Below are positions 22,500 through 25,419 of a stretch of 32,091 bases of DNA, one piece after another. Position numbers and translations under genes: made by a program. Location: IMG/VR virus record IMGVR_UViG_2609459797_000004, positions 1 to 32,091 of that record. One strand, written 5' to 3'. Source of the stretch: a virus (lineage: Duplodnaviria; Heunggongvirae; Uroviricota; Caudoviricetes). The first letter of the stretch is position 1. Each line of letters begins with the position of its first letter. The notes under the pieces are model-generated. The model did no database searches, was not told the origin of the DNA, and saw only the letters and a program-made list of their open reading frames with translations.

Positions 22500-22536
22500 T
22501 TGTTAATTTTCCAATAGTGAATAGTTAGTTGAAAGG

Positions 22537-22629
22537 TATGCGTGGAAACGCATATGGCCTTAGTTGGTCAGATATCTTGGGGCTCGCTTTGTCAGCGACG
22601 TAGGACGAATGTCCATTGTGAAAAGAGCG
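22537..22629 (-). promoter_or_regulatory. nutR-like region: boxA-like CGCTCTTTT, boxB-like hairpin and tR1-position hairpin
   Basis: Minus-strand CGCTCTTTT (22621..22629), hairpin TCGCT-GACAA-AGCGA (22584..22598) and hairpin TATGCGT-TTCC-ACGCATA (22537..22554), all between cro and cII. Confidence 0.45.
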
Positions 22630-22636
22630 GTGTTAC

Positions 22637-22837
22637 TTATGCAGTTGTTTTTTTGTTACTTGGGAAGGGCTTTATTTCTTCCGCATAAACGCTTCCATCA
22701 GCGTTTATAGTTAAAAAAATCTTTCGGCCTGCATGAATGGCCTTGTTAATCGCGCTTTGATATACGCCGAGATCTTTAGCCGTCTTGGTTTGCCCAAAGC
22801 GTATTGCATAATCTTTCAGGGTTATGCGTTGTTCCAT
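22637..22837 (-). CDS. cro: Cro repressor, lambda type (66 aa)
   Basis: [66 protein letters not shown] differs from remembered lambda Cro at two positions. Confidence 0.92.
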
Positions 22838-22863
22838 ACAACCTCCTTAGTACAGGCAACCAT

Positions 22864-22927
22864 TATCACCGCTAGAGGTAAAATAGTCAACACGCACGGT
22901 GTTAGAAGTTTATCCCTTGCGGTGATA
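22864..22927. promoter_or_regulatory. Right operator OR1-OR2-OR3 with divergent PR/PRM, lambda type
   Basis: Three 17-bp sites: TATCACCGCTAGAGGTA (OR1), CAACACGCACGGTGTTA (OR2), TATCCCTTGCGGTGATA (OR3); lie between the cro and cI starts. Confidence 0.8.
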
Positions 22928-22937
22928 GATTTAATGC

Positions 22938-23651
22938 ATGAGCGCAAAAAAGAAACCGTTAACACAAGAGCAGCTTGAGGACGCACGTCGCCTTAAAGCT
23001 ATTTATGAAAAAAAGAAAAATGAGCTTGGCTTATCCCAGGAATCTGTCGCAGACAAGATGGGGATGGGGCAGTCAGGTGTTGGTGCTTTATTTAATGGCA
23101 TCAATGCATTAAATGCTTATAACGCCGCATTGCTTGCAAAAATTCTCAACGTTAGCGTTGAAGAATTTAGCCCTTCAATCGCCAGAGAAATCTACGAGAT
23201 GTATGAAGCGGTTAGTATGCAGCCGTCACTTAGAAGTGAGTATGAGTACCCTGTTTTTTCTCATGTTCAAGCCGGGATGTTCTCGCCTGAGCTTAGAACC
23301 TTTACCAAAGGCGATGCGGAGAAATGGGTAAGCACAACCAAAAAAGCCAGTGATTCTGCATTCTGGCTTGAGGTTGAAGGTAATTCCATGACCGCACCAA
23401 CAGGCTACAAGCCAAGCTTTCCTGACGGAATGTTAATTCTGGTTGACCCTGAGCAGGCTGTTGAGCCAGGTGATTTCTGCATAGCCAGACTTGGAGGTGA
23501 TGAGTTTACCTTCAAGAAACTAATCAGGGATAGCGGTCAGGTGTTTCTACAACCACTAAACCCGCAATATCCAATGATCCCATGCAATGAGAGTTGTTCC
23601 GTTGTGGGGAAAGTTATCGCCAGCCAGTGGCCAGAAGAGACGTTTGGGTGA
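22938..23651 (+). CDS. cI: CI repressor, lambda type (237 aa)
   Basis: Full-length match to remembered lambda CI with about four substitutions, including [24 protein letters not shown] and the C-terminal LexA/S24-like domain. Confidence 0.95.
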
Positions 23652-23682
23652 TTGTTTTATTTTTCACGTAATAGGATGATTT

Positions 23683-24024
23683 ATGACACAATTTCAACTT
23701 GCATTAATCGCTAGAGAAGTTGATGGAGAAGTCATCCATCTTCGCACCAAAGACGGATACATCAATGCCACCGCGATGTGCAAGTCTGCGGGGAAGCTAC
23801 TTGCTGACTATACACGACTAAAAACAACACAAGATTTTTTTGATGAATTATCACGCGATATGGGGATTCCCATATCGGAGTTAATTCAATCATTTAAAGG
23901 CGGAAGAGCAGAGAATCAAGGGACTTGGGTTCATCCAGACATCGCAATTAATTTAGCTCAGTGGCTATCTCCAAAATTTGCAGTGCAAGTATCGAGATGG
24001 GTGCGTGAGTGGATGTCAGGTTAA
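23683..24024 (+). CDS. KilA-N (APSES-like) domain protein, 113 aa, at the rex position
   Basis: AGGATGA ribosome-binding site; signature GYINATAMCKSAGK...DYTRLKTTQDF...GTWVHPDIAINLAQWLSPKF typical of KilA-N domains; co-oriented with cI. Confidence 0.7.
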   Translation: MTQFQLALIAREVDGEVIHLRTKDGYINATAMCKSAGKLLADYTRLKTTQDFFDELSRDMGIPISELIQSFKGGRAENQGTWVHPDIAINLAQWLSPKFAVQVSRWVREWMSG

Positions 24025-24063
24025 AGAGCGCCTGCCGAACTCCCTATCCACCTTAAGCGGTAT

Positions 24064-24442
24064 ATGACAAACCGAGGCAGAGTTCCTCATACGCACTTTT
24101 CTATGCTTAATGAACTGACGTTTAACTTGGTTGCGCCACTTGAACAGGCCGGATATACGCTGCCAGAAAAAATGGTCCCTGATATTTCAGAGGGTAGGGT
24201 TTTCTCGCAATGGCTCCGTGACAACCGGGGGGTTGAGCCGAAGACATTCCCAACATATAACCATGAGTACCCAGATGGCCGGACATTCCCGGTACGTCTA
24301 TACCCAAACGAATATTGCAGATTTCAAACAATACTTCAACGAAGTGTGGCTGCCTCAGTACGCTCCTAAATATTTTGCTGAACGAGACCAAAGGGCATTG
24401 ACGTTGATTGAGAAAATCATGCTACCTGACCTTGATTCCTAA
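24064..24442 (+). pseudogene. Interrupted coding region downstream of the KilA-N ORF (same frame to 24369, +1 frame to 24442)
   Basis: Frame-1 ORF 24064..24369 is separated from the KilA-N ORF by a single TAA. The protein-like C-terminal stretch that runs to the terminator is in the +1 frame (track ORF 24131..24442). May be a decayed gene or separate genes. Confidence 0.4.
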
Positions 24443-24450
24443 ATGTTATT

Positions 24451-24477
24451 CCCGGCCACAGAGCCGGGTTTTCTTTG
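24451..24477 (+). terminator. Intrinsic terminator after the cI-operon cargo
   Basis: CCCGGC-CACAGA-GCCGGG hairpin followed by TTTTCTTTG, 9 nt after the 24442 stop. Confidence 0.6.
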
Positions 24478-24628
24478 CCTCACGATCCCCCTCACCCAAG
24501 AACACATAACCAATTGTATCTATTTGAAAATAAATAGATACAACTCACTAAACATAGCAGTTCAGATCTCTCACCTACCAAACAATGCACCCCTGCAAAA
24601 AATAAATTCATATAAAAAACATACAGAT

Positions 24629-24690
24629 AACCATCTGCGGTGATGAATTATCTCTAGCGGTGTTGACATAAATACCACTGGCGGTGATAC
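24629..24690 (+). promoter_or_regulatory. Left operator OL3-OL2-OL1 with PL promoter, lambda type
   Basis: AACCATCTGCGGTGATG (OL3), TATCTCTAGCGGTGTTG (OL2), TACCACTGGCGGTGATA (OL1); -35 TTGACA at 24663..24668 and -10 GATACT at 24685..24690, directed toward the N gene. Confidence 0.8.
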
Positions 24691-24759
24691 TAAACACATC
24701 AGCAGGACGCACTACTCACCAGGGCGGTGAATATACAACGATTCGAATATGAATCTACG

Positions 24760-24774
24760 GCGCTGACAAAGCGC
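24760..24774 (+). promoter_or_regulatory. nutL boxB-like hairpin (P22-type GACAA loop)
   Basis: GCGCT-GACAA-AGCGC, about 75 nt downstream of the PL -10 and about 260 nt upstream of the N start. Confidence 0.5.
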
Positions 24775-25035
24775 AATAACCAAAGTGAACTTTGGGGTGT
24801 GGTGAAGCCAGCTAGTCACTGGCAAGTGCTTACCTACTGTTGAGCGGTGAAGCGCTCCCAACGCTAGCAATAGCGTGGACGAGATGGGGAGCCGCGGGCG
24901 ATAAGGCCGCCATAACGCGCACGTTGTCGCATGGAAAAATCACTGGGGTGCCGGTTATACCCCTCCGAATGAGACTCAACAAGCTGGAGCTAGACTACCA
25001 GCCACCACACCACCAAAGTTCATCAGGAGGTCTAT

Positions 25036-25419
25036 ATGACACGCAGAACTCAGTTCAAAGGCAATTCACGTTCTCGTCGTCGTGAGCGTTTAAAGGCAAA
25101 GGCATTAGCTAACGGCGTACTGGCCCGCGAAGAAGCAATAAGTTCAGAAGTATTACACCGCCCTACTCTAAGCAGAGCGCAGATTCAGGCTAAAGGTACT
25201 CACGAAACGCCTGAGCGCAAAGAAGACGCTAAGCCAATTAAGTTCATGGCACAGGACGTGATCTGGCAACAGAAAGAATACAGACGCAATCTGGAGCGAG
25301 CGGCCATTGTGTACGCGAATGAGTTTGGACATAAGCAACCAGAAACTGGTGTATGTCTTCCAAACGTAGCCATTTACGCGGCAGGCTACCGGAAATCAAA
25401 ACAACTGACAGCGAGGTAA
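25036..25419 (+). CDS. N-type transcription antiterminator, P22 gene 24-like (127 aa)
   Basis: N-terminal arginine-rich motif (RSRRRERLKAKALA); C-terminus CLPNVAIYAAGYRKSKQLTAR matches the remembered P22 gp24 C-terminus; GGAGG ribosome-binding site. Confidence 0.75.
   Translation: MTRRTQFKGNSRSRRRERLKAKALANGVLAREEAISSEVLHRPTLSRAQIQAKGTHETPERKEDAKPIKFMAQDVIWQQKEYRRNLERAAIVYANEFGHKQPETGVCLPNVAIYAAGYRKSKQLTAR

Follow-up and report, generated by a model that had tools for sequence, protein, structure and literature searches.

Positions 22,500 to 25,419 of a 32,091-nt stretch of viral DNA (IMG/VR record IMGVR_UViG_2609459797_000004; this whole stretch is referred to as the window) hold the early regulatory centre of an Escherichia coli prophage, including the repressor gene cI, cro, the antiterminator gene N, and both nut sites. 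The leftward strand of lambda corresponds to the plus strand of the window, and after a DnaB-like helicase gene, the O gene, and a gp53-like open reading frame (ORF), the gene order continues with cII, nutR, cro, OR, cI, a KilA-N domain gene, OL/pL, nutL, a long leader, and N (Table 1). A first-pass annotation of this DNA had described a mosaic, in which lambda-type cI, cro, and operators are combined with an N gene and boxB hairpins of the P22 type. The mosaic is real and well understood, and the reasoning that its parts are independent modules is sound, but the antitermination component is of the H-19B/HK97/933W type.

The lambda-type immunity region

The CI and Cro proteins are identical to those of lambda at 233 of 237 and 64 of 66 residues, respectively, with the four CI substitutions being T3A, K71N, R129K, and S157Y. 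All six operators are present in the lambda arrangement together with pR, pRM, and pL, and each has at most one mismatch to its lambda counterpart, which bears out the earlier observation that CI, Cro, OR, and OL are nearly identical to those of lambda. OR1 (TACCTCTAGCGGTGATA) and OL2 (TATCTCTAGCGGTGTTG) both carry a G to A change at position 8, while the last base of OL3 is G instead of the A found in lambda; mEp234 has the same OR1 variant. The only two matches to the sigma-70 promoter consensus within positions 22100-25700 are pR and pL. Judging from these sequences, the prophage and lambda should be homoimmune.

Table 1. Features of the early regulatory centre and adjoining genes, in window coordinates
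Feature	Position	Strand	Remarks
cI, lambda-type repressor	22938-23651	+	Pfam HTH_3 and Peptidase_S24
cro, lambda-type	22637-22837	-	Pfam Cro, E 8e-34
OR1-OR2-OR3 with pR	22862-22927		pRM by homology
OR1	22864-22880		1 mismatch to lambda
OR2	22888-22904		identical to lambda
OR3	22911-22927		identical to lambda
pR	22862-22890	-	TTGACT-17-GATAAT
OL3-OL2-OL1 with pL	24629-24691	+	
OL3	24629-24645		1 mismatch to lambda
OL2	24649-24665		1 mismatch to lambda
OL1	from 24673		identical to lambda
pL	24663-24691	+	TTGACA-17-GATACT
timm-like terminator	24451-24478	+	GC stem and T run; start of the second lambda-identical block; equivalent site annotated Timm in mEp234
N, H-19B/HK97/933W-type antiterminator, 127 aa	25036-25419	+	Shine-Dalgarno AGGAGG at 25025-25030
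nutR boxB, TCGCUGACAAAGCGA	22584-22598	-	5-bp stem, GACAA loop
nutR spacer hairpin, GGACAUUCGUCC	22603-22614	-	4-bp fold between boxA and boxB; same sequence in H-19B
nutR boxA, CGCUCUUUU	22621-22629	-	read from sequence; annotated nutR boxA in mEp234
nutL boxA, putative, non-canonical, CGCACUACU	24708-24716	+	same position and sequence as "nutL, boxA" of EF120460
nutL spacer hairpin, GAUUCGAAUAUGAAUC	24740-24755	+	5-bp fold
nutL boxB, GCGCUGACAAAGCGC	24760-24774	+	5-bp stem, GACAA loop
N-leader long-range hairpin	24785-25023	+	arms 24785-24804 and 25003-25023; interior 24808-24994 of Sf6/HK544 type
Right mosaic joint	22637-22644		last three codons and stop of cro
Left mosaic joint, ATCAGCAGGACGCACT	24698-24713	+	16 nt at the pL transcript start
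cII, H-19B/HK97-type, 98 aa	22203-22499	-	Pfam Phage_CII, E 5e-34
KilA-N domain gene	23683-24442	+	slot of lambda rexAB; Pfam KilA-N, E 2e-27; disrupted
gp53-like ORF	between the O gene and cII		
O gene, P22 gp18/HK97-type	21201-22022	-	
DnaB-like helicase	19828-21204	-	

The N protein, its nut sites, and the N leader

The N protein is identical to that of the Stx1 phage H-19B (AF034975) at 123 of its 127 residues, and it differs at one to four residues from the N proteins of 933W, PhiR5_2, HK97, and mEp234, with its best phage matches reaching 99.2% identity. Like H-19B N, it has the sequence RSRRRER at residues 12-18, within the arginine-rich motif (ARM; GNSRSRRRERLKAKALAN), as well as the H-19B C-terminal RNA polymerase-binding tail. 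It also carries R3, S11, R15, R18, and L108, the positions at which mutations of H-19B N have defined how it binds RNA and RNA polymerase (PMC3526286, PMC4499122). Mutants, antitermination assays in vitro, and RNA footprinting have served to characterize both the ARM of H-19B N and its nutR (PMC3526286, PMC4499122). The lambda type of N, recognized by an N-terminal MDAQTRRRERRAEKQAQW motif and a GCCCUGAARAAGGGC boxB, is not what the window encodes, and its boxB sequences differ from that of lambda. Outside of the arginine-rich motif, no significant similarity to lambda N was detected (E 0.012), and the protein has no match to Pfam N36 (PF11438), for which lambda N scores 92 bits. A PDB sequence search with N returned no match even at E values up to 10.

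The protein does pass the Pfam model centred on P22 gp24 (N_peptide, PF25694), scoring 56.3 bits over residues 2-127 where the cut-off is 27.9. For comparison, gp24 reaches 152 bits, whereas lambda N falls below the cut-off with 16.4 bits. Both the window N and gp24 match PHROG 271. By BLASTP, only the last 30 residues align with gp24 (67% identity, E 3e-10), so the gp24-like C-terminus noted in the first-pass annotation is indeed present. The C-terminal 22-23 residues (GVCLPNVAIYAAGYRKSKQLTAR; residues 105-127, listed at window positions 25106-25419) also recur at ~95% identity in HK630 (NC_019723) and Lambda_ev203, the N proteins of which share only this segment with the window N, and among the matches listed, ARM type and C-terminal type assort independently in viral contigs. 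Because the tail recurs on N proteins that are otherwise unmatched, the N gene is a mosaic in itself, with its ARM and its RNA polymerase-binding tail exchanged separately. Moreover, a P22-like C-terminus is not diagnostic of nut specificity, since it is also present on N proteins with other RNA-binding motifs.

Each nut site comprises a boxA-like element, a dyad-symmetric spacer, and a boxB with a GACAA loop, with two hairpins predicted at each site. This is the layout of H-19B, whose nutR site contains two hairpins (PMC3526286). The nutR boxB (TCGCTGACAAAGCGA, stem TCGCU/AGCGA) is identical in H-19B, AU5Stx1, HK97, and mEp234, while the nutL boxB (GCGCTGACAAAGCGC) is identical in H-19B, 933W, HK97, and mEp234 and is also the nutL boxB 15-mer of P22. 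Thus, the GACAA-loop hairpins previously proposed at the two nut positions lie exactly where they had been placed and, when compared with published nut sites, match the boxB elements of H-19B, with nutL matching P22 as well. Except at boxA (CGCTCTTTT in the window, CGCTATTTT in H-19B) and at a few bases further downstream, the nutR of H-19B, in which the boxA position reads CGCUAUUUU, equals that of the window. For nutL, the two-hairpin segment has a z score of -4.2, and among relatives the stem of its spacer hairpin is kept while the loop is variable (GAAUAU, AAAUAU, AGAGAU, or AAGCAA).

We also weighed whether the GACAA hairpins might be terminators or fortuitous inverted repeats and not nut sites at all. 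Each hairpin is just 15 nt long, the nutR segment alone folds no better than shuffled sequence (z = -1.2), and a permissive Rfam search of positions 21500-26500 found no nut or boxB family; no Rfam model detects the hairpins. However, their 13-mer core (CGCTGACAAAGCG) has exactly two copies in the 32-kb window, both at the boxB sites, compared to 0.05 expected by chance, and the hairpins lie in the canonical places, one immediately 3' of cro and the other ~60 nt from the start of the pL transcript. Neither hairpin is followed by the T run of a terminator, and both match exactly the nut sites of H-19B on which published antitermination assays were carried out. In addition, boxB type covaries perfectly with N ARM type in 56 contigs among the matches listed. 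Given the copy number, the positions, the identity to H-19B, and the covariation with the ARM, we reject this explanation, which strikes us as highly improbable. The sole hit of the Rfam search, a sub-threshold match to GcvB at positions 26230-26430 on the minus strand (24.5 bits versus a gathering score of 42, E 0.021), is probably due to chance.

A variant of the same nutR framework was observed in the cro-cII intergenic regions of VT2-Sakai and g341c, where the spacer hairpin is GGACATTCGTCC and is followed by CTACG. Their nutR boxB (TCGCTGAAAAGCGA) has a GAAA tetraloop and equals the window boxB minus the C of the loop (GACAA to GAAA). The corresponding N proteins have the ARMs AASRRRARRAN (VT2-Sakai) and AAGRRRERRAA (g341c), both unlike that of the window. 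On sequence, the GACAA/GAAA difference looks like a one-nucleotide specificity switch, and it repeats on a finer scale the covariation of nut type with N type.

Between nutL and N, the minimum free energy fold of the leader pairs GUGAACUUUGGGGUGUGGUG with CACCACACCACCAAAGUUCAU (z = -3.9). Equivalent stems fold in lambda, Sf6, HK97, 933W, H-19B, and P22, and in all types ...CUUUGGGGUG... after nutL pairs with ...CACCACCAAAG... before the Shine-Dalgarno sequence, enclosing a variable interior; we take the lambda counterpart of this stem to be the RNase III processing site in N autoregulation. Over positions 24790-25018, the window shares 99.6% identity with the N leaders of Sf6, HK544, HK633, mEp213, and others, and in the two of these that were examined, HK544 and Sf6, nutL and N are of the lambda type. 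By local BLAST, positions 24808-24994 have no match in HK97 or PhiR5_2. These two phages and 933W have a 92-nt interior in common that differs from that of the window, and H-19B has a third type. The outer arms of the window leader are of the H-19B type (GUGAACUUUGG / CCAAAGUUCAU), and because they enclose an Sf6-type interior, the exchange points lie in the conserved inner arms (CUUUGGGGUGUGGUG / CACCACACCACCAAAG). An Sf6-type interior between an H-19B-type nutL and N is uncommon, being found in 6 of 5426 E. coli genomes and, among the matches listed, in none of 32 sampled H-19B-type viral contigs, while the reverse combination of a lambda nutL with an HK97-type interior also occurs in viral contigs. 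In total, there are at least four or five types of leader interior, which assort independently of nutL type. The leader mosaic is a small refinement and not a new kind of element.

Mosaic joints and the separate inheritance of the two modules

Local BLAST confined the DNA identity with lambda to positions 22623-23652 (96.3%) and 24451-24730 (91.8%), while HK97 matched at 97.7% over positions 20500-23647, a block that includes cII, and again in nutL and N (97% for N). CII is identical to that of H-19B at 89 of 98 residues, compared to 38 of 98 for lambda CII. Crossovers were placed by four-way alignments of the window, lambda, and H-19B, 933W, or AU5Stx1. At the right joint, the window equals lambda up to ...AAAAAAACAAC (~22644) and H-19B from TGCATAAG onward (~22643). 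The left joint is a block that is exact in both lambda and H-19B and differs at one base in 933W; 5' of this block, the window equals lambda and not H-19B/933W, whereas from position 24714 it equals H-19B/933W and not lambda. These alignments place the recombination joints in the final codons of cro and in the 16-nt block where the pL transcript begins. The same N and nut sites adjoin unrelated repressors in H-19B, 933W, and AU5Stx1, and lambda immunity adjoins lambda-type N and nut sites in lambda and HK544. The first-pass proposal that antitermination specificity was exchanged independently of immunity is consistent with these occurrences, and on the sequence comparisons, the view that the N/nutL/nutR set and the cI/cro/OR/OL set have different histories holds.

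Such a juxtaposition might also be produced by a chimeric assembly or another artefact, and the nonsense change and 2-bp deletion in the KilA-N gene could in principle be sequencing errors. Yet the same arrangement exists in HK97, mEp234, HK106, and PhiR5_2, which were isolated and sequenced independently, its joints are matched in >100 complete E. coli genomes, and at least 50 IMG/VR contigs have an H-19B-type nutR after lambda cro. These independent occurrences effectively refute an artefact, the probability of which we regard as negligible.

A different origin for the antitermination genes would be direct acquisition of the N/nut module from P22 or a close P22 relative, with strict P22 nut specificity. 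This would account for the nutL boxB 15-mer, for the 67% identity of the last 30 residues to gp24, and for the shared PF25694 and PHROG 271 assignments, and the virion genes of the prophage are likewise P22-like, of the HK620/Sf6 type. However, P22 DNA (NC_002371) matches only positions 25350-25420 (71 bp within N, 76% identity by local BLAST), BLASTP aligns only the end of N, and the protein as a whole shares 97-99% identity with its H-19B, 933W, and HK97 counterparts. The nutR boxB of P22 is CCGCCGACAACGCGG rather than TCGCTGACAAAGCGA, and P22 has a canonical boxA and a short unstructured spacer with no spacer hairpin. True P22-type modules do occur beside lambda immunity in other contigs, and they differ from the window in ARM (GNAKTRRHERRRKLAIER), in the boxA-spacer (boxA-TTCGATG-boxB in their nutL, GCTCTTTAACTTCGATGGGGCGCTGACAAAGCGC), and in nutR (CGCTCTTTATCAATCTGCACCGCCGACAACGCGG, with boxB CCGCCGACAACGCGG). 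The window thus has the GACAA pentaloop of the P22 type at both sites but not the remainder of the strict P22 combination of ARM, nutR boxB, canonical boxA, and short unstructured spacer. The H-19B-type N, the nut architecture, and the negligible P22 DNA identity refute a direct P22 lineage, to which we would give only a very slim chance. As for the earlier "P22-type" label, membership in the gp24 Pfam family and the nutL boxB 15-mer remain valid, whereas the implied lineage does not, and the module should be called H-19B/HK97-type.

The window N and P22 N do share the ARM pattern GN..[ST]RR.ER and a related C-terminal RNA polymerase-binding tail. Because the nutL boxB elements are identical base for base and the ARMs have this pattern in common, the two N proteins might cross-recognize each other's nutL, although we consider this rather doubtful. 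If they did, lambda-immune HK97-like E. coli prophages and P22-like phages could activate one another's leftward operons in trans, and specificity would reside mainly in nutR and the boxA/spacer context instead of the ARM-boxB pair.

Joint-spanning queries were counted as matched at ≥80% coverage in 5426 complete E. coli genomes. The cro/nutR joint was matched in 118 genomes and the OL/nutL joint in 111, or ~2%. We also scanned IMG/VR for lambda OR2, which yielded at least 119 contigs, and the following counts are among the matches listed. Five nutR types were found 3' of lambda cro, all starting right after GCATAA: the H-19B type (at least 50 contigs), the lambda type (at least 45), the P22 type (at least 11), a fourth type with boxB CCCGCCGAAATGCGGG (at least 4), and the GAAA-tetraloop type (at least 2). 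The nut types were called by explicit sequence classes, drawn up from inspection of the intergenic sequences; a general search for perfect stems overlooked the P22-type nutR and produced spurious hits (TCATCgaaaGATGA). In 56 contigs, nutR, nutL, and N were all readable, and their types agreed in every one (26 H-19B, 24 lambda, 3 P22, and 3 of the fourth type), with no mixed contigs. This agreement fits N and both of its sites being kept matched across an exchangeable immunity cassette. Among these natural lambda-immune phages, N systems of the H-19B type and of the lambda type are about equally frequent. The fourth type (loci L039, L052, L117, and related IMG/VR loci) has CCCGCCGAAATGCGGG in both nut sites and an N that starts with MTVVITYLADDNARNRRRARRQAQREQ and has a lambda/HK544-like C-terminus.

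We place the probability at roughly 93% that the early regulatory centre consists of two separately inherited specificity modules, lambda immunity and an H-19B/HK97/933W-type N system. The first spans ~22644-23652 plus 24451-24713, where CI and Cro acting upon OR1-3 and OL1-3 would control pRM, pR, and pL and thereby set immunity. The second is split into two parts that flank the first, namely nutR-tR1-cII and nutL-leader-N. Upon derepression, pL and pR would fire, and N, encoded by the pL transcript, would bind via its ARM (residues 12-18, RSRRRER) to the GACAA boxB hairpins that nutL and nutR form in the nascent RNA. Acting with NusA, it would render RNA polymerase resistant to termination, allowing it to read through tR1 and the leftward terminators. 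The crossovers lie in short sequences common to all lambdoid phages, one where cro ends and the other in the initial 16 nt of the pL transcript. Since the halves of the antitermination module must match each other and not the repressor, the immunity cassette between them would be exchangeable. The sequence identities, the joint positions, the hairpin folds, and the co-occurrence of nutR, nutL, and N types were observed directly, whereas immunity, RNA binding, and antitermination are all inferred here from published lambda and H-19B work.

Several points weigh against this interpretation. OR1, OL2, and OL3 have one base change each and CI has four substitutions, which may affect the predicted immunity, although the OR1 change is present in the viable mEp234. 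The prophage may also be decaying, as its KilA-N gene is disrupted. The viral contigs cannot count as phylogenetically independent samples, and the OR2 sample consists of the matches listed. Lastly, there is no canonical boxA near the nutL boxB. Inspection of the sequence between pL and the nutL boxB found no CGCTCTT motif, and the putative boxA of the mEp234 depositors (CGCACTACT) is at the transcript start. Neely and Friedman are said to have reported in 2000 that antitermination by H-19B N requires NusA but not boxA, NusB, or S10, and the absence of a canonical nutL boxA would fit this statement.

The finding matters little beyond correct annotation, under which the prophage would be treated as lambda-homoimmune yet H-19B-type N-dependent. 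This annotation bears on the prediction of superinfection immunity, on cross-induction, and on complementing helper functions. The survey itself serves as a quantitative illustration of the textbook principle that an immunity cassette is swapped at fixed joints while the flanking antitermination halves stay matched.

Related phages and neighbouring genes

The arrangement is already known and ordinary, as it is the same in HK97 (NC_002167), mEp234 (EF120460), HK106 (EF120461), and PhiR5_2 (PV340546) and has already been described. HK97, mEp234, and HK106 resemble the window in their lambda-type cI, cro, and operators, and they have its N (127 aa) and both of its boxB 15-mers, that of nutL and that of nutR, in common with it; block matches were taken from local BLAST for HK97 and from megablast hit boundaries for mEp234 and HK106. 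EF120460 annotates GCGCTGACAAAGCGC as the nutL boxB and TCGCTGACAAAGCGA as the nutR boxB, beside lambda-type oL1-3 and oR1-3. The EF120460 and EF120461 records are presumably those of Degnan et al. 2007. HK97 additionally shares cII, gp53, the P22 gp18-like O gene, and the DnaB-like P gene with the window. The rexAB slot differs, being occupied by a broken KilA-N gene in the window, gp48/gp49 in HK97, and hicAB in mEp234. Likewise, the leader interior is of the Sf6/HK544 type in the window and of the HK97/933W type in the HK97-group phages, and the virion is that of an HK620/Sf6-like podovirus in the window, whereas HK97 is a siphovirus. A literature search found no useful statement on the homoimmunity of HK97 with lambda, although a lambda-type immunity region is visible in the HK97 sequence.

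The best overall matches are PhiR5_2 and E. coli prophages, such as those of strains 1008S19, F5, and ABWA45. PhiR5_2 covers 93% of positions 22500-25419 at 97.8% identity and has the same KilA-N gene in intact form, but unlike the window, it has an HK97-type leader interior and lambda-like O plus DnaC replication genes. The prophage of strain 1008S19 matches at 99.6%, while strain F5 has the exact nutL-leader-N segment (100% identity). In the H-19B/933W system (AF034975, AF125520), nutL is identical to that of the window from the pL start through boxB, whereas the H-19B repressor, Cro, and operators are unrelated (59 of 237 CI residues identical) and its leader interior is also different. Lambda (J02459) shares CI, Cro, the operators, pR, pL, and the timm-like terminator, but its N, nutL, nutR, and cII are unlike those of the window, in which rexA and rexB are replaced.

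The KilA-N gene in this slot is intact in several E. coli prophages as well, and in comparison to the 253-aa PhiR5_2 copy, the window gene has a nonsense change at position 24022 and a 2-bp deletion at ~24314, lesions that reflect either prophage decay or sequencing error.

The virion genes at positions 540-14322, which encode the portal, terminase, coat, and DNA-injection proteins, are 96-97% identical to those of HK620, Sf6, and vB_EcoP-611R6. To judge from this gene content, the element is a P22-like E. coli prophage with an HK620/Sf6-type virion and HK97-like early genes. Because its virion genes are HK620/Sf6-like, the lambda immunity region here resides in the prophage of a P22-like podovirus. 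vB_EcoP-683R2 is a similar phage, and its match runs on through cI.

Downstream of N, positions 25420-27478 contain a 75-aa ORF with no Pfam match, a gene at 25644-26336 whose product matches Nmad5 (nucleotide modification associated domain 5; E 2.5e-71), and a gene at 26453-27478 for a 341-aa protein with a very high content of E, A, K, and R. This set is unlike the genes that follow N in HK97, 933W, and PhiR5_2. There is also a terminator-like hairpin with a T run at positions 22227-22254 on the plus strand, antisense to the 3' end of cII, which occupies the position of the lambda oop terminator.

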